IMG/VR virus record: IMGVR_UViG_2740892232_000005
Reading direction: 5' to 3' (one strand)
Source: a virus
Lineage: Duplodnaviria; Heunggongvirae; Uroviricota; Caudoviricetes
Length of the DNA stretch: 23,299 nucleotides
In this document: positions 14,794-23,299 of the stretch, piece by piece
Layout of the letters: each line of letters begins with the position of its first letter
Numbering within the stretch: the stretch's first letter is position 1
Program-made: the position numbers and the translations under genes
The notes under the pieces: model-generated
Seen by the model: the letters and a program-made list of their open reading frames with translations, nothing else
Database searches by the model: none
What the model was told of the DNA's origin: nothing

Positions 14794-15039
14794 ATGACAC
14801 AAAACTATGAACTGATTGTGAAAGGGATCCGCAATTTTGAGAATAAAGTTGCGGTAACTGTAGCATTAAGGGACAAAAAACGCTTTGACGGTGAAATTTT
14901 TGACCTGGACATCTCGCTGGACCGTGTTGAAGGTGCCGCGCTGGAGTTTTATGAGGCAGCAGCCAGAAGGAGCNNNNNNNNNNAGTTGCAGCCGGGTTAT
15001 GTGAAGGGGATGAGCAGTCGCCGGAAAAGCGCCCCATAA
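14794..15039 (+). CDS. YdfR-like small protein; reading frame interrupted by scaffold gap 14974-14983
   Basis: ATG 14794 with GGAGAG RBS; 60 codons up to the gap (MTQNYELIVKGIRNFENK...); sequence after the N-run may belong to another contig, so the C-terminus is unreliable. Confidence 0.45.
   Translation: MTQNYELIVKGIRNFENKVAVTVALRDKKRFDGEIFDLDISLDRVEGAALEFYEAAARRSXXXXLQPGYVKGMSSRRKSAP
14974..14983. other. Assembly gap (10 N)
   Basis: Run of n in the sequence. Confidence 1.
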
Positions 15040-15471: not shown

Positions 15472-16005
15472 ATGAACGCAAAAATCAGATACAGCCTGTC
15501 GGCTACTGTACTAGTGCTGATTGGTGCAGGCGCGTCTGCTCCTCAAATACTTGACCAGTTTCTGGACGAAAAAGAAGGTAACCACACAACGGCATACCGT
15601 GATGGTTCCGGCATCTGGACCATCTGTCGGGGTGCCACGATGGTGGATGGAAAACCCGTTTTTCCCGGTATGAAACTGTCGAAGGAAAAATGCGACCAGG
15701 TTAACGCCATCGAACGTGATAAGGCGCTGGCATGGGTGGAACGTAATATTAAAGTACCACTGACCGAACCACAAAAAGCGGGTATCGCGTCATTTTGCCC
15801 CTATAACATTGGCCCCGGTAAGTGTTTCCCGTCGACGTTTTATAAGCGGCTTAATGCCGGTGATCGTAAAGGTGCCTGTGAGTCGATTCGCTGGTGGATT
15901 AAGGACGGTGGGCGTGATTGCCGCACACGTTCAAATAACTGCTACGGACAGGTTATTCGTCGTGACCAGGAAAGCGCATTAGCCTGTTGGGGGATAGATC
16001 AGTGA
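15472..16005 (+). CDS. rrrD: Endolysin, T4-lysozyme-family true lysozyme with N-terminal SAR (signal-anchor-release) domain (RrrD/R21-like)
   Basis: Catalytic E...D...T triad context ([20 protein letters not shown]); weakly hydrophobic Gly/Ala-rich N-terminal segment ([14 protein letters not shown]); paired with a pinholin. Confidence 0.9.
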
Positions 16006-16463
16006 GAAGAGTAGCCGCGATTATCTCCGCTCTGGTTATCTGCATCATCGTCTGCCTGTCTTGGGCTGTTAATCATTACCGTGATAACGCCATTACCTAC
16101 AAAGCCCTGCACGACAAAAATGCCAGAGAACTGAAGCTGGCGAACGCGGCAATTACTGACATGCAGATGCGTCAGCGTGATGTTGCTGCGCTCGATGCAA
16201 AATACACGAAGGAGTTAGCTGATGCGAAAGCTGAAAATGATGCTCTGCGTGATGATGTTGCCGCTGGCCGTCGTCGGTTGCACATCAAAGCAGTCTGTCA
16301 GTCAGTGCGTGAAGCCACCACCGCCTCCGGCGTGGATAATGCAGCCTCCCCCCGACTGGCAGACACCGCTGAACGGGATTATTTCACCCTCAGAGAGAGG
16401 CTGATCACTATGCAAAAACAACTGGAAGGAACCCAGAAGTATATTAATGAGCAGTGCAGATAG
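16002..16463 (+). CDS. Rz: Spanin inner-membrane subunit Rz (i-spanin), near-identical to lambda Rz
   Basis: [32 protein letters not shown]...KYINEQCR matches lambda Rz almost residue for residue (from memory); GTG start overlaps the endolysin stop (GTGA). Confidence 0.9.
16222..16404 (+). CDS. Rz1: Spanin outer-membrane lipoprotein Rz1 (o-spanin), embedded in the +1 frame of Rz
   Basis: [23 protein letters not shown]...[15 protein letters not shown]; lipobox and proline-rich region identical in character to lambda Rz1. Confidence 0.85.
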
Positions 16464-16494: not shown

Positions 16495-16788
16495 TTATTT
16501 TGAGCAATACACCCGCGCTTCCAGCGGAGTATAAATGCCAAAAGTGATGAAACCGAGCAATCCATTTACGAATGTTTGCTGGGTTTCTGTTTTAACCACA
16601 TTTTCTGCACCACCACAAATTTTTGCTGCATCGACAGTTTTCTTCTGCCCAATTCCCGAAACGAAGAAATGATGGGTGATGGTTTCCTTTGGTGTTACTG
16701 CTGTCGGTTTGTTTCCAACAGTAAACGTCTGTTGAGCACATCCTGTAATAAGCATTGCCAGAGCGGCAGAAAACAACATTTTTTTCAT
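16495..16788 (-). CDS. bor: Bor lipoprotein (serum-resistance protein, lambda Bor-like)
   Basis: MKKMLFSAALAMLITGCAQQTFTV...LEARVYC matches lambda Bor; ATG at 16788 with AGGAT RBS; the track ORF has an N-terminal extension. Confidence 0.9.
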   Translation of the reverse strand: MKKMLFSAALAMLITGCAQQTFTVGNKPTAVTPKETITHHFFVSGIGQKKTVDAAKICGGAENVVKTETQQTFVNGLLGFITFGIYTPLEARVYCSK

Positions 16789-17268
16789 CTTATTATCCTG
16801 CATTGTTAAAAACGGCAGAATCCTATGTGACAACAATTAAACGATAGTTAAATGGATTGATGAAAATTAAAACTACACAGGTGAGCTCAGACGATTGGAG
16901 GGAGTTGGGGACACTCAGAATCCTGTAGAATGAAATAAACCGGTCTATCCGTCCATTACCCTTTTAGCTGCGCTGTATCGTCGCCGTATTCCCGCATTAA
17001 CCATGACCGTAGCCCGACGGGGAATTCCTTCTGCGTGAGTGTGCGGGAATAATTAAAAACGATGCACACCGGGTTTTTACCGCGTTAATGATTCGCGGAT
17101 TTATCCCGGTGCGATGGTGGAAGAAACCGGAAGCTGTATTACAGAAAGTGCTACTACTGTATCCCGATGCGATGTATGTAATGTGAGTCAGATAATGGCA
17201 CAGGATGTGGTGATGTGGCAGTCTGGAACACAGGATATATTGTCAGAATAAGACCCGTAGGAATAAAA

Positions 17269-17595
17269 ATGAAAAGACGCCTTTTACTACTTTTTCTGTT
17301 ATCTGTCCTAGCAGTGGGATGCTCGCAGCAAAAAGCTGATGAGCCCCGGCAATTAGTGACGGTGTATCCACGATATCCGGAATATGCTGCAGCAAATTAT
17401 ATCAAGGGGCTGGTTGAGGTTAAGTTCGATATTGGTGCTGATGGGACTGTGACACGGATCGTTTTTCTCCGCTCAGAGCCTCATAATTTGTTTCGTGATG
17501 AAGTGGTGAAGGCCATGGCGAAATGGCGATTTGAAAAGAATCGTCCCTGTCAGGGAGTGAAGAGACAATTTATCTTTACGCCGTCACGTCCCTGA
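17269..17595 (+). CDS. Outer-membrane lipoprotein carrying a TonB C-terminal domain (108 aa)
   Basis: Signal peptide plus lipobox (LLLLFLLSVLAVGC, Ser at +2); C-terminal YPRYPEYAAANYIKGLVEVKFDIGADGTVTRIVFLRSEPHNLFRDEVVKAMAKWRFE aligns with the TonB C-terminal domain; AGGA RBS before ATG 17269. Confidence 0.75.
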   Translation: MKRRLLLLFLLSVLAVGCSQQKADEPRQLVTVYPRYPEYAAANYIKGLVEVKFDIGADGTVTRIVFLRSEPHNLFRDEVVKAMAKWRFEKNRPCQGVKRQFIFTPSRP

Positions 17596-17717
17596 TGCTT
17601 CCAGGTAGAGAGGGGCTGGAAGCAGGAGAAAAATGAAAGAGCCAGCGGTTATATTTTTGTCATGGCTGACGAGGAATGATGGAAGAAGGCGTTGTATGCC
17701 ACACAACGCCTCACTGT

Positions 17718-18071
17718 TCATTTCTTCTTTTTCTCTAGTGGAACCCGATGAATAAGAGTTGCACTGGTTTCCGATGAGATGGCGATATACTCGGGCAAAG
17801 TATGCTGGCAGTTTTCCAACTGGTCAAAAATACCTGCTCTCGTCTGTTGCAATGCCTGCAGCATGCGGCGGCAATGCGCCTTGCTTTTGCTAACCATCTT
17901 TCCTTCCTCTATCAGTCGCTGCGTGAACTCATCATGGAATACCAGGTAAATGCGGATGTTATCGGTTTTGGCTACGCAGCATAGTACAAAACGGACAGGT
18001 GCATCCCGGGACGGGGGAGGCGTCACATGTCCCTGTGATGGTTGTTCCGGGTAATGCACTGTGTGGGGCAT
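17718..18071 (-). CDS. Hypothetical ORF (117 aa); may be the 3' part of a frameshifted gene together with 17959..18210
   Basis: ORF only; overlaps the adjacent minus-strand ORF in another frame; no RBS verified. Confidence 0.25.
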   Translation of the reverse strand: MPHTVHYPEQPSQGHVTPPPSRDAPVRFVLCCVAKTDNIRIYLVFHDEFTQRLIEEGKMVSKSKAHCRRMLQALQQTRAGIFDQLENCQHTLPEYIAISSETSATLIHRVPLEKKKK

Positions 18072-18210
18072 AAAAATGTCCGATAATTTTACTTTCTACC
18101 GCAGTTAGTTGATTCGTTGGTCCTGGTAGCACATTGGGCGAGGATTTAAATGCCAGGCAACTGAAGGATGATGTTGCAAGGGAGATAGCGAGAATATTTC
18201 TGATTTTCAT
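17959..18210 (-). CDS. Small secreted Cys-rich protein (83 aa) with N-terminal signal peptide
   Basis: ATG 18210; MKIRNILAISLATSSFSCLA signal-like N-terminus; C-terminal TGTCDASPVPGCTCPFC cluster; weak RBS. Confidence 0.3.
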   Translation of the reverse strand: MKIRNILAISLATSSFSCLAFKSSPNVLPGPTNQLTAVESKIIGHFYAPHSALPGTTITGTCDASPVPGCTCPFCTMLRSQNR

Positions 18211-18359
18211 TTGATGATGCCTCTGTGTGAAATGACGGTAAACGACGCACTTGTGCCGGCACATAATAGCAAGCACCATAATAGATCAGATTCGATTCTT
18301 GCTGTAAGTGATAATTATTCTCGTTTTTCGGGTCCTTTCCGGCGATCCAACAGGCTACG

Positions 18360-18371
18360 GGGCGGCGACCT
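18360..18371. other. cosN cohesive-end site (GGGCGGCGACCT), identical to the lambda 12-nt cohesive end
   Basis: Sequence 18357-18405 (ACGGGGCGGCGACCTCGCGGTTTTTCGCTATTTATGA) matches the lambda left-end sequence; located about 230 bp upstream of the Nu1-like gene. Confidence 0.7.
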
Positions 18372-19094: not shown

Positions 19095-21638
19095 TCTGAT
19101 GGCTGCCGTTTCGGTTGCGCTGCAGCCTCTGGTCAGGGTTGTACCGATGACGGCAGTTGAATGGGCTGACCAGTATTATTATCTGCCGAAAGAATCCTCA
19201 TACGGTGACGGCGAATGGAAAACGCTGCCGTTCCAGATCGCCATCATGAACAGTATGGGGAATGATCAGGTCCGCACTGTTAATCTGATTAAATCTGCCC
19301 GTGTTGGCTATACAAAGATGTTGCTGGGGGTGGTCGGGTATTTTATTGAGCATAAATCCCGAAACAGTCTGCTTTTTCAGCCCACGGATTCTGCCGCTGA
19401 AGATTTTATGAAGTCTCACGTGGAGACGACGATTAGGGACGTGCCATGCCTGAAAGACCTTTCCCCATGGCTGGGTCGTAAACATCGTGATAATACCCTC
19501 ACGCTGAAACGCTTTTCATCGGGCGTCGGTTTCTGGTGCCTGGGCGGCGCTGCCGCCAAAAACTACCGTGAAAAATCCGTGGATGTGGTCTGCTATGACG
19601 AACTTTCCTCGTTCGAACCGGATGTTGAAAAAGAGGGTTCGCCAACCCTGCTGGGGGATAAACGTATTGAGGGCTCTGTATGGCCAAAATCCATTCGCGG
19701 CTCGACGCCTAAAATCAAAGGCTCCTGCCAGATCGAAAAAGCCGCTAACGAGTCGGCACATTTCATGCGTTTTTATGTGCCCTGCCCGCACTGTGGGGAG
19801 GCGCAGTATCTGAAATTTGGCGATGAATCCACGCCTTTTGGCCTTAAATGGGAGAAGGACAGCCCCGAAAGCGTTTTCTACCTCTGTGAACATCATGGCT
19901 GCGTGATCCATCAGTCTGAGCTTGACCAGAGCAACGGGCGGTGGATCTGTGAAAACACGGGGATGTGGACCCGTGACGGTCTGACGTTTTTCAGCGCCGC
20001 GGATAATGAAATTCCGCCGCCGCGCTCCATCACGTTCCATATCTGGACGGCGTACAGTCCGTTCACCACCTGGGTACAGATAGTCTATGACTGGCTGGAT
20101 GCACTGNNNNNNNNNNCATGTGGACCCGTGACGGCCTGATGTTTTTCAGCGCCCGGGGTGATGAAATTCCGCCGCCGCGCTCCATCACTTTCCATATCTG
20201 GACGGCGTACAGTCCGTTCACCACCTGGGTACAGATAGTCTATGACTGGCTGGATGCACTGAAAGATCCCAACGGCCTGAAAACCTTTGTGAACACCACG
20301 CTGGGCGAGACCTGGGAAGAGGCCGTGGGCGAAAAACTCGATCACCAGGTACTGATGGATAAGGTCGTGCATTACACGGCGGCGGTGCCAGCCCGGGTGG
20401 TTTATCTGACGGCGGGCATTGACTCGCAGNNNNNNNNNNACGTCCCGATGAGGAAGAGACGCTGTTACGTGTGGATGCGGCGATCAACAAAAAATACCGC
20501 CATGCAGACGGAACCGAAATGACCATTTCCCGTGTCTGCTGGGACATCGGGGGTATCGATGGCGAAATCGTTTATCAGAGGTCAAAAAAACACGGTGTTT
20601 TCCGGGTGCTGCCGGTAAAAGGCGCATCTGTCTATGGCAAGCCGGTGATCACCATGCCAAAAACCCGCAATCAGCGGGGCGTGTATCTGTGTGAAGTGGG
20701 GACAGACACCGCAAAAGAAATTCTCTATGCCCGTATGAAAGCCGAGCCCACGCCTGCGGATGAATCCACGTCGTATGCCATCCGTTTTCCTGATGATCCG
20801 GAGATTTTTTCGCAGACAGAGGCGCAGCAACTGGTCGCGGAAGAGCTTGTGGAGAAGTGGGAAAAAGGAAAGATGCGTCTGCTGTGGGATAACAAAAAGC
20901 GGCGTAACNNNNNNNNNNCGAAACCGTTTTGAGATGTATGTCTGGGGATGGGCTCCGGGAGAGGAAGCCTTTCTGGTGGATAAAATCATCATTATGGGGC
21001 GTCCCGATGAGGAAGAGACGCTGTTACGTGTGGATGTGGCGATCAACAAAAAATACCGCCATGCAGACGGAACCGAAATGACCATTTCCCGTGTCTGCTG
21101 GGACACCGGGGGGATCGATGGCGAAATTGTCTATCAGAGGTCAAAAAAACACGGTGTTTTCCGGGTGCTGCCGGTAAAAGGTGCATCTGTTTATGGCAAG
21201 CCGGTGATCACCATGCCAAAAACCCGCAATCAGCGGGGCGTGTATCTGTGCGAAGTGGGGACGGACACCGCAAAAGAAATTCTCTATGCCCGTATGAAAG
21301 CCGATCCCACGCCTGCGGATGAAGCCACGTCGTATGCCATCCGTTTTCCTGATGATCCGGAGATTTTTTCGCAGACAGAGGCGCAGCAACTGGTGGCGGA
21401 AGAGCTTGTGGAGAAGTGGGAAAAAGGAAAGATGCGTCTGCTGTGGGATAACAAAAAGCGGCGTAACGAAGCGCTGGACTGCCTGGTGTATGCCTACGCG
21501 GCATTACGTGTGTCCGTGCAACGCTGGCAGCTTGATCTGGCTGTACTGGCAAAATCCCGGGAAGAAGAGACGACCCGGCCAACCCTTAAAGAACTGGCAG
21601 CGAAGCTGTCCGGAGGAGTGAATGGTTACAGTCGCTGA
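19066..21638 (+). CDS. A: Terminase large subunit (lambda gpA-like); span inflated by three scaffold gaps and two redundant variant segments
   Basis: MNISEQQ...AVEWADQYYYLPKESSYGDGEWKTLPFQIAIMN...TWVQIVYDWLDAL...WDNKKRRNEALDCLVYAYAALR is collinear with lambda gpA; true length about 642 aa once duplicated segments 20118-20261 and 20441-20908 are removed. Confidence 0.85.
19963..20106 (+). repeat. Contig-end overlap: 144 nt that reappears at 20118-20261 with about 6 mismatches
   Basis: Direct comparison of the sequence on both sides of the N-run. Confidence 0.9.
20107..20116. other. Assembly gap (10 N)
   Basis: Run of n. Confidence 1.
20430..20439. other. Assembly gap (10 N)
   Basis: Run of n. 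Confidence 1.
20441..20908 (+). repeat. Redundant variant copy (about 97-98% identical) of terminase segment 21000-21467, bounded by two N-gaps
   Basis: Direct comparison: same reading frame and protein segment (RPDEEETLLRVD...WDNKKRRN) with roughly 10 SNPs. Confidence 0.9.
20909..20918. other. Assembly gap (10 N)
   Basis: Run of n. Confidence 1.
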
Positions 21639-21828: not shown

Positions 21829-23299
21829 AACGAACGCCTGTCCTGATTGATGTGAACGGTGTTCCGCTTCGTGAGAGTCTCAGCTACAACGGGGGCGGCG
21901 CAGGATTTGGCGGGCAAATGGCGGAGTGGTTGCCACCTGCGCAGAGTGCCGATGCGGCCCTGCTGCCCGCGTTGCGTCTGGGGAATGCCCGGGCAGATGA
22001 TCTAGTGCGCAATAACGGAATAGCGGCTAATGCGGTTGCCCTGCATAAGGATCACATTGTCGGGCATATGTTTCTGATCAGCTACCGTCCGAACTGGCGC
22101 TGGCTGGGGATGCGGGAGACCGCAGCAAAAAGCTTTGTCGATGAGGTGGAGGCGGCCTGGTCGGAATACGCCGAAGGGATGTTTGGCGAGATCGACGTGG
22201 AAGGAAAACGCACGTTCACGGAATTTATCCGTGAAGGTGTGGGCGTTCATGCGTTTAACGGCGAAATCTTTGTGCAGCCGGTCTGGGATACGGAAACCAC
22301 GCAGTTATTCCGTACGCGTTTTAAAGCTGTGAGTCCGAAACGGGTGGACACGCCTGGACACGGTATGGGGAACCGTTTTCTGCGGGCCGGTGTGGAGGTC
22401 GATCGATATGGCCGTGCCGTCGCGTACCATATCTGTGAGGATGATTTTCCGTTCTCTGGTAGTGGACGATGGGAACGGATCCCGCGTGAACTTCCCACCG
22501 GGCGTCCGGCCATGCTGCATATTTTCGAGCCGNNNNNNNNNNGGCTAATCAGTTTTACAGCGTCATGGAACGGCTGAAGATGCTCGATTCCCTGCAGGCA
22601 ACACAGCTTCAGTCGGCCATAGTGAAGGCGATGTATGCAGCGACGATTGAAAGTGAACTTGATACCGAAAAGGCCTTTGAATATATCGCCGGCGCGCCAC
22701 AGGAGCAGAAGGATAATCCGCTTATTAATATTCTGGAGAAGTTCTCCAGCTGGTATGACACGAATAACGTGACACTGGGCGGAGTCAAAATTCCGCACCT
22801 TTTCCCTGGTGATGATCTGAAACTACAGACTGCGCAGGATTCAGACAATGGATTTTCTGCACTTGAACAGGCGCTGCTGCGGTATATCGCCGCCGGTCTT
22901 GGCGTTTCCTACGAACAGTTGTCCCGTGATTACTCGAAGGTCAGTTACTCAAGTGCCCGCGCCTCCGCCAATGAGTCGTGGCGCTATTTTATGGGGCGGC
23001 GAAAATTTATTGCGGCCCGGCTGGCCACGCAGATGTTTTCCTGCTGGCTGGAAGAGGCACTTCTTCGGGGGATTATTCGTCCGCCACGGGCACGTTTTGA
23101 TTTTTATCAGGCGCGATCAGCCTGGTCACGGGCAGAGTGGATTGGTGCCGGAAGAATGGCCATTGACGGGCTCAAGGAAGTCCAGGAATCAGTGATGCGC
23201 ATTGAGGCCGGACTGAGCACGTATGAGAAAGAGCTGGCGCTGATGGGCGAGGATTATCAGGACATTTTCCGCCAGCAGGTCAGGGAATCTGCAGAGCGG
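21825..23299 (+). CDS. B: Portal protein (lambda gpB-like), 3'-truncated by the window end and interrupted by gap 22533-22542
   Basis: GGGAGFGGQ...LPALRLGNARADDLVRNNGIAANA...FRTRFKAVSPKR, and after the gap AIVKAMYAATIESELD...LRYIAAGLGVSYEQLSR...MAIDGLKEVQE, collinear with lambda gpB. Confidence 0.9.
22533..22542. other. Assembly gap (10 N)
   Basis: Run of n. Confidence 1.

Follow-up and report, generated by a model that had tools for sequence, protein, structure and literature searches.

Many phages, colicins and microcins, as well as siderophore-linked antibiotics (albomycin, cefiderocol), enter the cell by way of the TonB system, which is also a drug target in its own right. The C-terminal domain (CTD) of TonB pairs via its strand β3 with TonB boxes, and the TonB-dependent transporters (TBDTs) greatly outnumber TonB in the cell. 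Interference with this route from the periplasm has been described in two settings. The outer-membrane lipoprotein Llp of phage T5 is reported to block the transporter FhuA from the periplasmic side, and overexpression of a periplasmic TonB domain inhibited TBDT-mediated iron import in E. coli (Howard et al. 2001, as cited in PMC9841981).

Here we analysed a stretch of 23,299 nucleotides from a Caudoviricetes virus (IMG/VR record IMGVR_UViG_2740892232_000005; hereafter the window). It stems from a lambda-like prophage and contains a gene for a lipoprotein of 108 amino acids. The protein consists of a lipobox-containing signal peptide and a complete TonB C-terminal (TonB_C) domain and nothing else, a combination that is far beyond chance. 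The gene is already annotated in databases; its architecture and mechanism are previously undescribed, and a full-text literature search for a functional study of a TonB_C lipoprotein found none. The following features were assigned to the locus:

16972..17150, no strand given: highly conserved, structured non-coding block upstream of the TonB_C gene, in upstream regions that are about 95% identical between alleles

17167..17196, plus strand: candidate promoter of the gene itself, with a weak −35 hexamer ATGCGA, an 18-nt spacer and the −10 hexamer GATAAT (17191-17196), 8 of 12 consensus matches

17259..17262, plus strand: Shine-Dalgarno motif AGGA, 6 nt 5' of the ATG, seen in the sequence; the phage 21 record annotates a ribosome-binding site

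17269..17595, plus strand: coding sequence of the 108-residue TonB_C lipoprotein including the stop codon, from the open reading frame list and the sequence

17269..17322, plus strand: predicted lipoprotein signal peptide, residues 1-18, ending in the lipobox A-V-G-C, as read from the sequence

17323..17364, plus strand: tether from the lipid anchor to the globular domain, residues 19-32, SQQKADEPRQLVTV, delimited by alignment to TonB residues 151-159

17344..17583, plus strand: TonB C-terminal domain, residues 26-105, from Pfam, TIGRFAM and PDB sequence matches, AlphaFold and Foldseek

17597..17623, plus strand: hairpin just 3' of the stop codon, seen in the sequence, formed by GCTTCCAG, an 11-nt loop and CTGGAAGC, without a U-run

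The open reading frame starts with an ATG and ends with the TGA at 17593-17595. Identical coordinates are found in the record of phage 21, where the gene is named 'TonB C-terminal domain protein', while PGAP names it 'TonB family protein'. The protein is identical (100%) to this phage 21 gene product and to LF82_160, the 'TonB fragment' of prophage Perceval in E. coli LF82; further database names are 'Partial tonB-like membrane protein' and, wrongly, spanin. The gene is located between iss/bor and cos with cosN 765 bp downstream, in agreement with a first reading of the sequence alone that had placed it beside bor and before cos. Unrelated phages use the same slot, on the late strand between the lysis cassette and the terminase, namely the Stx1/JLK-2012 phages of E. 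coli, one phage of Klebsiella and a prophage of Sodalis. The adjacency to iss/bor is not conserved, as bor is not adjacent in the JLK-2012, Klebsiella and Sodalis prophages.

The N-terminus of the protein, MKRRLLLLFLLSVLAVGC followed by SQQ, comprises a basic n-region, a 12-residue hydrophobic core and the lipobox A-V-G-C. This signal (MKRR-LLLLFLLSVL-AVGC) complies with the PROSITE rule PS51257 (lipobox [LVI..][ASTVI][GAS]C, its Cys lying in the range of residues 15-35), as checked by eye. Cys18 is predicted to be acylated and to begin the mature protein; it does not vary among 13 aligned family members and is kept in at least 90% of 33 aligned sequences. The +2 residue is Ser19, so that the sequence-only reading, which had reported a lipobox with Ser at +2, was correct on both counts. 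The residue after the lipobox Cys decides on Lol-dependent sorting to the outer membrane. Because of this established rule and because none of 31 aligned short family members contains Asp at +2, the lipoprotein is predicted to be sorted to the outer membrane by the Lol pathway.

The tether following the lipid anchor comprises only 14 residues in place of the proline-rich spacer of TonB (roughly 100 residues). The AlphaFold pLDDT is lower over residues 1-25, and a search of the protein sequence for EP/KP repeats did not reveal any. The full-length TonB equivalog models NF008080-NF008084 match only over their C-terminal ~80 positions (profile ~150-240), with 45-69 bits compared to cut-offs of 265-448. 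In place of the uncleaved transmembrane anchor of a TonB energy transducer, the protein carries a cleavable lipoprotein signal peptide, and it has no proline-rich spacer, which bears out the earlier statement that spacer and N-terminal transmembrane region are both missing.

The identification of the domain, previously proposed from sequence motifs, was substantiated by profile searches as well as by structure prediction. The protein matched Pfam PF03544 with an E value of 7.3e-13 and 49.2 bits (gathering score 24.6) and TIGR01352 with 47.4 bits (cut-off 27.1), and phmmer against the E. coli TonB CTD (1u07) aligned residues 24-103 without gaps to TonB 151-230 (E 1.4e-14); the identity to E. 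coli TonB is 38-41%. AlphaFold2 with a 33-sequence alignment produced a model with a mean pLDDT of 87.2 and values of 96-98 in 10-residue blocks over residues 31-100, superseding a model from a 6-sequence alignment with a pLDDT of 61. The model contains a helix (38-42), two strands (47-55 and 61-70), a second helix (76-83) and a last strand (94-103), and shows the three-stranded sheet packed on two helices with an exposed last strand that is typical of the fold. The best 16 matches in a Foldseek search against the PDB were all TonB-family CTDs (TonB, FusB, TonB2), with TM 0.92 and rmsd 1.0 Å over 79 columns for 2gsk_B, TM 0.92 and rmsd 0.9 Å over 75 columns for 2grx_C, and a range of TM 0.91-0.92 and rmsd 0.9-1.5 Å for the E. 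coli TonB CTD structures including those bound to BtuB or FhuA. A search of the BFVD viral structures gave no match at E 1e-3 or better. Judging from the model, the closest structures are those of E. coli TonB as bound to BtuB and FhuA, and the domain is complete and of the monomer type.

The TonB hallmark residues P34, Y36, P37, G47, V49, G59, P71, F75, W86 and P93 are conserved. The core positions of TonB (Y163, P164, F180, G186, F202, W213, Y215 and F230) are represented by Y36, P37, F53, G59, F75, W86, F88 (a Tyr to Phe exchange) and F103. In the model, strand 94-103 corresponds to β3 of TonB, with the core-facing residues F101 and F103 in the positions of TonB I228 and F230.

The sequence-only reading had regarded the gene as a moron, and this view is supported by published RNA-seq data on its transcription. 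In lysogens, transcripts of the gene for the identical protein LF82_160 of Perceval exceed the prophage background 8-fold, whereas the lysis and terminase genes on either side do not rise above it (PMC9928086). Its log2 expression values were 5.0-6.6 in all conditions, compared to 2.3-4.3 for the neighbouring Rz and terminase genes and a similar level of 4.2-7.2 for chromosomal tonB (PMC9928086). The expression was constitutive and modest without any induction in DMEM or macrophages, in contrast to the strongly induced Bor/Iss gene (PMC9928086). These values refer to the LF82 prophage Perceval and not to the strain of the window, and they support the assignment of the gene as a moron by autonomous transcription.

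Because of the autonomous transcription in the lysogen, a promoter is expected somewhere in the upstream interval. The site containing GATAAT is a candidate for the gene's own promoter; its −10 hexamer is kept in the diverged allele of phage JLK-2012, although a stricter promoter scan did not call a promoter at 17167..17196. The ribosome-binding site is conserved as GGGA in the second allele. The block at 16972..17150 is about 95% identical between the alleles, although the synonymous sites of the genes themselves are near saturation, and its predicted RNA fold has an energy of −55.9 kcal/mol (z −2.6). An Rfam search of the flanks of the gene, including this block, found no known RNA family, and many lambdoid phages without the TonB_C gene also carry the block. 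It may be either a regulatory element or a mosaic-junction element, and may or may not belong to the TonB_C gene. The hairpin at 17597..17623 was not called by an intrinsic-terminator scan and may, from its sequence and position, serve as the 3' end of the transcript. We also considered regulation by iron via Fur and rejected it: the search for a Fur box upstream of the gene found none (the best site, at the promoter, had 9/19 matches), and the expression was unchanged in DMEM or macrophages. Matches of 14/19 to the Fur consensus occur within the window only at 18304-18328, adjoining cosQ, and are probably due to chance.

We tentatively propose that the lipoprotein acts as an energy-uncoupled competitor for TonB boxes which protects the lysogen, an explanation that we regard as possible but somewhat short of probable. 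The lipoprotein would sit on the periplasmic side of the outer membrane, where its last strand could pair as a β-strand with the TonB-box strand of the TBDTs; the TonB boxes of group B colicins entering the cell would be equally possible targets. Because it has neither an ExbB/ExbD-coupled anchor nor a spacer, it is unable to transduce energy, and it would compete with the real TonB of the cell. TonB-dependent entry would then be closed in part or for selected routes, and the lysogen might tolerate phages that depend on TonB as well as colicins, microcins or sideromycins. The lipidation, the outer-membrane location, the binding to TonB boxes and the protective phenotype are all predictions. 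In the experiments of Howard et al. in 2001, phi80 infection and colicin M killing were reportedly inhibited too.

Several observations limit how strong such a competition could be. The modest transcript level counts against it, and a decoy of low copy number could not occupy every transporter, since TBDTs outnumber TonB. Carriage of the gene is common among APEC/ExPEC and AIEC strains and extends to Stx-phage lysogens. Since ExPEC, APEC and AIEC strains rely on TonB-driven siderophore uptake, a strong general blockade is disfavoured. A search of PADLOC-DB 2.0 gave no match to a defence system at E values up to 0.1.

The domain may instead serve a partner of its own, such as peptidoglycan or another envelope protein. 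The protein would then be an outer-membrane lipoprotein with a TonB_C fold unrelated to TonB boxes, derived from a host envelope gene borrowed by phages, with a function in host interaction or envelope stability that it might share with Iss/Bor, the serum-resistance lipoprotein encoded next to it. We consider this unlikely, yet it agrees with the position of the family, which consists of short TonB_C lipoproteins of Enterobacterales and splits from the canonical TonB CTDs in a neighbour-joining tree (81% bootstrap). The family shows conserved surface positions of its own, namely Y39, N43, S69, L74, F88 and a D at the position of TonB E203 (Arg76 in this protein), and has lost several surface residues conserved in TonB. 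TonB R166 is replaced by Tyr, which is found in 92% of the family, and Q160 and R158 by Tyr and Thr, respectively, in this protein, at positions that are variable across the family; N190, R204 and E205 are likewise not conserved. Because R166, Q160 and R158, which are reported to contact the transporters, are not kept, and neither are N190, R204 and E205, the family may indeed have its own partner.

Orphan members of the family are also encoded on the chromosomes of Pantoea, Erwinia and Raoultella, and their neighbourhoods contained no phage, transporter or iron genes. This lack of phage context points to a general cellular rather than a phage-specific role, and the lack of iron-uptake neighbours likewise suits a separate partner. 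The same applies to the constitutive expression unresponsive to DMEM or macrophages, the missing Fur box upstream, and the compatibility of the gene with siderophore-dependent pathotypes. On the other hand, none of the gene neighbourhoods points to an alternative partner, and the varying adjacency to iss/bor (absent in JLK-2012, Klebsiella and Sodalis) speaks against a joint function with this neighbour. Moreover, the relevant edge strand is retained in the model, and TonB boxes are, to our knowledge, the only binding mode established experimentally for the TonB_C fold in E. coli. We keep competition for TonB boxes as the preferred reading.

It is improbable, in our judgement, that the lipoprotein captures the CTD of TonB itself at the outer membrane, in mixed dimers or otherwise, and thereby shrinks the pool of cycling TonB. 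TonB CTDs do crystallise as dimers (1u07 and 1ihr/1qxx are among the matches), and Howard et al. are said to have proposed non-functional mixed dimers in 2001 as one explanation of dominant negativity. A transcript level like that of tonB would also be more fitting for the stoichiometric inhibition of scarce TonB than for that of abundant transporters. However, the model resembles the monomeric CTD bound to a transporter much more closely than the intertwined dimer 1qxx (TM 0.46, rmsd 18 Å), and the protein stops at the position of TonB residue 235, four residues earlier than TonB, lacking the last four residues of the strand that is used in the dimer forms.

The distribution of the gene bears on the idea that it is an inert remnant of host tonB carried passively, as implied by the database names 'TonB fragment' and 'Partial tonB-like membrane protein'. 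Of 5426 complete E. coli genomes, 1225 contain the allele of the window and 415 a second, 72% identical allele. Between about a quarter and a third of E. coli genomes carry the gene. Nearly all copies of both alleles are full length, amounting to ~1,600 intact genome copies. Between the two alleles, dN/dS is 0.12 at a pS of 0.65, and the TonB_C gene is under purifying selection. A remnant is very improbable in view of this low dN/dS with saturated synonymous sites, the conservation of start codon, ribosome-binding site and lipobox across alleles and genera, the complete and predictedly well-folded domain, the transcription in lysogens, and an identity of only 38-40% to E. coli TonB in a separate clade. 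A decaying tonB fragment is effectively refuted by the dN/dS value, the conserved lipobox and the separate clade. The picture of a 'TonB fragment' needs correction, in that the protein belongs to a separate lipoprotein family and is not a recent truncation of host tonB.

A role in lysis as an outer-membrane spanin component is hardly credible: the best PHROG match, phrog_1267 at 5e-43, is labelled 'Rz-like spanin' and a lipoprotein gene near the lysis cassette would fit, but the window already contains a genuine pair of Rz (15987-16463, phrog_13) and an embedded, proline-rich Rz1 (16222-16404, phrog_3198), an antisense gene separates Rz from the TonB_C gene, whose transcription in lysogens coincides with silent lysis genes (PMC9928086), the globular TonB_C domain without a C-terminal membrane segment is at odds with the short, proline-rich and unstructured nature of o-spanins, and the label is probably explained by the weak match of Rz1 itself to phrog_1267 (E 1.3e-4, residues 5-49 vs. 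profile 4-48), since the matching stretch includes the signal peptide and lipobox.

A functional coupling with the TonB-independent Fe/Mn importer SitABCD, which might compensate for closed TonB gates, was also considered and proved not to be general. The sitABCD genes are present in 7 of 7 phage records with the first allele, and a further 20 sit-positive records do not contain the TonB_C gene. None of the phage records retrieved with the second allele or from Klebsiella was among the 27 sit-positive records, and sit was absent from all three sampled chromosomal prophages with the TonB_C gene. The association looks like linkage within one phage lineage.

If the preferred competition for TonB boxes is true, the TonB system would have a naturally occurring inhibitor that is carried by phages. 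Exclusion would then be aimed at a shared energy-coupling motif instead of one receptor, which could make lysogens tolerant of a broad range of agents, including phages that depend on TonB, group B colicins, microcins, and conjugates of siderophores and antibiotics. In this case, the gene could shape the susceptibility to phage therapy and bacteriocins as well as the iron-uptake physiology of many E. coli strains unnoticed. The full proposal of a new mode of exclusion, in which a widespread prophage moron provides a lipid-tethered, energy-dead TonB docking domain that locks the TonB boxes of transporters or traps those of colicins, is doubtful at present. If it is false, there is still a conserved lipoprotein family of Enterobacterales that has repeatedly been placed by phages in one genome slot.

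Compared to known systems, the closest relative in structure is the E. coli TonB CTD (residues ~150-239; 1U07, 1XX3, BtuB-bound 2GSK and FhuA-bound 2GRX), which shares the fold with an rmsd of ~1 Å. The YP motif, G186, F202, W213 and the β3 edge strand of TonB are kept. In contrast to TonB, the protein contains no anchor or spacer and hence no link to ExbB/ExbD or the proton motive force, its predicted lipid anchor is in the opposite (outer) membrane, and it is encoded by a prophage. Diverged TonB CTDs adapted to particular transporters are also known from FusB of Pectobacterium, HasB of Serratia and TonB2 of Vibrio, and the FusB CTD is among the best structural matches. These proteins keep a membrane anchor and energy coupling and promote uptake, whereas the lipoprotein studied here cannot be energised.

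The fragments used by Howard, Herrmann, Stratilo and Braun in 2001 were reportedly artificial, soluble and overexpressed, and comprised at least 118 residues of authentic TonB. Such engineered periplasmic fragments likewise place an anchorless C-terminal part of TonB in the periplasm, and the inhibition of iron import on their overexpression, as cited in PMC9841981, is the direct experimental precedent for a dominant-negative effect. The protein described here differs from them in being natural, of ~90 residues in its mature form, predicted to be lipid-tethered, only ~40% identical to TonB, and modestly expressed. Bor/Iss is also an accessory outer-membrane lipoprotein of prophages which is encoded in the slot from the lysis genes to cos and transcribed in lysogens, but it belongs to a different family (PF06291) with an unrelated fold, lies on the opposite strand, and is strongly induced in DMEM and macrophages, while the TonB_C gene is constitutive.

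Finally, Cor (phi80, N15, HK022, T1) and Llp (T5) are likewise small phage lipoproteins predicted or shown to act on a TonB-dependent transporter from the inner face of the outer membrane and thereby to block entry. The TonB_C lipoprotein is related to them neither in sequence nor in fold, and searches of Pfam, NCBIfam and PHROGs at E values up to 1 did not match either family. Over its last 250 residues, the J protein of phage 21 shares 57% identity with lambda J and 55% with 434 J, and no phi80/N15-type J relatives were present among the 40 of 283 matching records that were listed. A Cor-like self-exclusion thus finds no support in homology to Cor or Llp or in the J tip, which is lambda/Stx-like among the matches listed. 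Cor and Llp target FhuA, the receptor of their own phage, whereas the target proposed for the TonB_C lipoprotein would be a motif common to all TonB-dependent transporters.

The window contains an open reading frame at 17269-17595 (+) that starts with ATG, ends with TGA and encodes 108 residues, preceded by a ribosome-binding site (AGGA) 6 nt 5' of the start codon. The N-terminus of the product, referred to here as the window protein, reads MKRRLLLLFLLSVLAVGC and, directly following, SQQKADEPRQLVTVYPRYPEY..., and comprises a basic n-region, a 12-residue hydrophobic core and the lipobox A-V-G-C with Cys18 and a Ser at +2. The remainder was recognized by the profiles PF03544 (Pfam; 49.2 bits, E 7.3e-13, gathering score 24.6) and TIGR01352 (47.4 bits, cut-off 27.1), and the best phmmer matches among PDB sequences were C-terminal fragments of E. 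coli TonB (1u07, E 1.4e-14), residues 24-103 aligning without gaps to TonB 151-230. Because the full-length TonB equivalog models of NCBIfam (45-69 bits vs. cut-offs of 265-448) aligned by their last ~80 positions only, the protein has neither the membrane anchor nor the proline-rich spacer of TonB, and the linker between Cys18 and the globular domain is just 14 residues long. A first AlphaFold model based on a 6-sequence alignment showed a pLDDT of 61, although its top structural matches were all TonB domains; after enlarging the alignment with 31 more distant family members, the mean pLDDT was 87.2, with residues 31-100 at 96-98. The top 16 Foldseek matches in the PDB were C-terminal domains of the TonB family, including E. 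coli TonB alone (1u07_A, TM 0.91, rmsd 1.5 Å, 86 columns), bound to BtuB (2gsk_B, TM 0.92, rmsd 1.0 Å, 79 columns) and bound to FhuA (2grx_C, TM 0.92, rmsd 0.9 Å, 75 columns). In the model, the last strand (residues 94-103) is the predicted counterpart of TonB β3, the edge strand which pairs with the TonB box. The sequence-only reading had proposed a lipobox signal with Ser at +2 in front of a TonB C-terminal domain, with neither a proline-rich spacer nor the N-terminal anchor of TonB. Sequence, profiles and fold bear out the former and the partial NCBIfam matches the latter, and the proposed profile and structure-prediction checks agree (49.2 bits vs. 24.6; TM 0.91-0.92 to the E. coli TonB C-terminal domain), confirming the observed architecture in every respect.

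The window represents a lambda-like prophage, in which the gene is flanked as follows:

15472-16005 (+), lysozyme
15987-16463 (+), Rz spanin
16222-16404 (+), embedded Rz1 spanin
16495-16788 (-), Bor-family gene, Iss type; within 16495-16836 (-), upstream MQDNK, then MKKMLFSAALAMLITGC...
17269-17595 (+), TonB_C lipoprotein gene
18360-18371, cosN, lambda-type cohesive end GGGCGGCGACCT, 765 bp 3' of the TonB_C gene stop codon
from 18483 (+), Nu1

The previously suggested position beside bor and before cos is thus correct, with the Iss-type bor gene 5' and cosN 3'. PGAP names the bor-type neighbour in E. coli 20Ec-P-124 "increased serum survival lipoprotein Iss", and the cosN site had scored as terminator-like in a promoter/terminator scan. 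Two small ORFs at 17802-17984 (+) and 17718-17897 (-) overlap on opposite strands at 17802-17897 and each match a PHROG family of unknown function (phrog_3744, 2e-45, and phrog_4843, 1.3e-44, respectively), the plus-strand ORF being the one annotated by the phage 21 record and PGAP. Five runs of exactly 10 N (14974-14983, 20107-20116, 20430-20439, 20909-20918 and 22533-22542), three of them inside the large terminase gene region, where the ORF is broken (XXXX in translation), are more suggestive of masking or scaffolding than of a biological feature.

The right end of phage 21 consists of the same DNA (99.3% identity), with the gene annotated as "TonB C-terminal domain protein". The window's version of the gene (allele 1) is also present in phages ev017 and Perceval ("TonB fragment"), in three ECOR-derived phages and, as "TonB family protein", in 1225 of 5426 complete E. 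coli genomes. A second version (allele 2, 72% protein identity) is carried by Stx1a phages and by phages JLK-2012 and Lys8385Vzw, and occurs in 415 of these genomes with a maximum of four copies per genome. JLK-2012, a Klebsiella phage (41% identity) and a Sodalis prophage (44%) all contain the gene on the late strand, with the lysis cassette on one side and the terminase genes on the other; their packaging modules differ. A 418-bp contig of a "Modestobacter excelsi" assembly (NZ_SJEX01000172.1), encoding residues 1-67 with 100% identity, almost certainly stems from E. coli or a phage contaminating that assembly.

Phage 21 additionally carries sitABCD, coding for a TonB-independent Fe/Mn ABC importer, 3' of the side tail fibre genes (record positions 21967-25416), as do 26 other phage records. 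The seven phage records with allele 1 all belong to these 27, which had suggested a pairing in which closed TonB gates are compensated by Sit. As a general rule this pairing was rejected: 20 of the sit-positive records do not contain the TonB_C gene, none of the identified allele-2 and Klebsiella phage records is sit-positive, and of the chromosomal prophages with the TonB_C gene, all three sampled lack sit and contain Lom, tail fibre, methyltransferase and ompT genes instead. Linkage within a single phage lineage is the best explanation for the association of allele 1 with sitABCD.

An exhaustive profile search returned many proteins of 107-133 residues aligning end to end with the window protein, from Salmonella, Klebsiella, Gibbsiella, Rahnella, Erwinia and Pantoea, and a genome scan added Raoultella and Sodalis. 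The short members examined contain a lipobox, and none of 31 aligned has Asp at +2. In a neighbour-joining tree of the domain, the short lipoproteins separate from the canonical gammaproteobacterial TonB domains (81% bootstrap), and the window protein shares 44-49% identity with its nearest relatives outside E. coli (e.g., from Salmonella and Gibbsiella), compared to 39-43% with canonical TonB domains. Judged from its sequence, the window protein is therefore a member of a distinct family and not a truncated TonB of the host. Raoultella and Klebsiella sp. R390 carry the gene on the chromosome in a syntenic position, following lacZ-like and lacI-like genes and a gene for a glycine-zipper protein, while Erwinia, Pantoea agglomerans and a genome labelled Salmonella have it as an orphan amid unrelated metabolic genes. 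From these contexts, the family is a host envelope gene family that was taken up by phages; the neighbourhoods examined did not suggest a partner.

Across 36 family members and 10 canonical TonB domains, the structural hallmarks P153, P161, Y163, P164, G174, V176, D181, G186, P198, F202, A209, W213, R214 and E216 (TonB numbering) are common to both groups. R166, an Arg in 90% of the TonBs, is Tyr in 92% of the family, and L170, A196, M201 and Y215 are consistently replaced by Asn, Ser, Leu and Phe, respectively. E203 is Asp in 86% of the family (Arg76 in the window protein), and the TonB-conserved N190, R204 and E205 are not kept. The positions of Q160 and R158 are variable (Tyr33 and Thr31 in the window protein); both residues reportedly adjoin the TonB box in the 2006 FhuA and BtuB complex structures, and Q160 is also the site where TonB-box mutations are classically suppressed. 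Based on these differences, the specificity or even the partner of the family could differ from that of TonB, and the main rival explanation, which we regard as rather unlikely, is that these proteins bind another envelope component and have no connection with TonB boxes. On the other side, the core-facing F101 and F103 of the last strand match I228 and F230 of TonB, so that backbone-mediated pairing of this strand with a TonB box is still plausible in the model.

The two alleles differ with pS 0.65, pN 0.16 and dN/dS 0.12, indicating strong purifying selection, and an inert tonB fragment is ruled out by the selection and conservation data. The protein encoded by LF82_160, the Perceval copy in the AIEC strain LF82, is 100% identical to the window protein and was classed as a "TonB fragment" among the morons of the LF82 transcriptome, with transcription 8-fold over the local prophage background (PMC9928086). 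Its log2 expression was 5.0-6.6 across ten samples from LB, DMEM and macrophages (log2FC 0.26, not significant), compared to 2.3-3.7 for the upstream Rz gene and 2.3-4.3 for the downstream small terminase gene, both at background, and 4.2-7.2 for chromosomal tonB; unlike the TonB_C gene, the Bor gene was strongly induced in DMEM and macrophages (PMC9928086, supplementary tables). This indicates separate, constitutive transcription in lysogens at about the level of tonB and supports the earlier designation as a moron. A strict promoter scan upstream of the gene found none, while a looser scan combined with the two-allele alignment yielded a conserved candidate -10 element (GATAAT, 17191-17196) with a weak -35 region.

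Further upstream, a non-coding block of ~180 bp (16972-17150) shows ~95% identity between the alleles, unlike the coding sequences, whose synonymous sites are almost saturated. Many lambdoid phages without the TonB_C gene also carry part of this block (17000-17107), with ~93% conservation. The plus strand of the block folds into a stable structure (-55.9 kcal/mol, z -2.6) that includes an 11-bp stem (UAUUCCCGCAU / GUGCGGGAAUA), and no Rfam family matched; the block could act as a regulatory RNA, resemble a terminator or mark a recombination junction. The two best Fur-box-like matches of the whole window (14/19) lie at 18304-18328, just 5' of cosQ and cosN, with further matches (12-13/19) at 18184-18208, and are probably due to chance and the high AT content of the cos sequence. 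Between these sites starts an 83-aa ORF on the minus strand (18210 to 17959), which is unannotated, has a signal-peptide-like N-terminus (MKIRNILAISLATSSFSCLA) and has no match in Pfam, PHROG or PADLOC.

The gene is already known under several database names and was once classed as a transcribed moron of unknown role. A full-text literature search found no functional study, PADLOC contains no model for the window protein, and the BFVD viral structure set contains no structural relative. None of the annotations and literature surveyed describes the product as a lipoprotein, predicted to reside in the outer membrane, the separate family common to chromosomes of Erwiniaceae and Raoultella, the position shared by unrelated prophages from three genera, or the apparent error behind the name spanin. 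This name stems from phrog_1267 ("Rz-like spanin", category lysis), the PHROG family into which the window protein falls, and was rejected, as the window contains a genuine Rz/Rz1 pair; the true Rz1 matches phrog_1267 weakly (E 1.3e-4) over residues 5-49, including signal peptide and lipobox, and the label appears to be a mis-transfer.

Our tentative preference is that the lipoprotein acts as an energy-uncoupled competitor of TonB for TonB boxes at the outer membrane. With its 14 residues, the tether would leave the domain no more than a few nanometres from the periplasmic rim of TonB-dependent transporters, where it may bind exposed TonB boxes, either those of the transporters themselves or those of group B colicins in passage. 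Without a link to ExbB/ExbD it would be unable to pull, and we infer that it competes with TonB instead. The contact-residue substitutions, the existence of orphan members on chromosomes, an expression that is constitutive and modest, and the abundance of the gene in siderophore-dependent APEC, ExPEC and AIEC strains all speak against a strong general blockade; a selective or partial effect on TonB functions, or trapping of colicin rather than transporter TonB boxes, would fit better. In a variant which we consider quite improbable, the lipoprotein captures TonB itself; the model shares the TonB fold, but is far closer to the monomeric form than to the intertwined dimer (1qxx, rmsd 18 Å).

Competition of this kind has an experimental precedent. 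A free periplasmic TonB domain is said to have inhibited phi80 infection and colicin M killing, and fragments reduced to the last 118 residues were reportedly still active. According to PMC9841981, which cites Howard et al. 2001, overexpression of the periplasmic TonB domain inhibited iron import via TonB-dependent transporters in E. coli. A functional analogue is Llp of phage T5, a phage lipoprotein closing FhuA from the periplasmic side. The TonB_C lipoprotein would join these two kinds, the TonB_C domain family and the receptor-blocking lipoproteins of phages.
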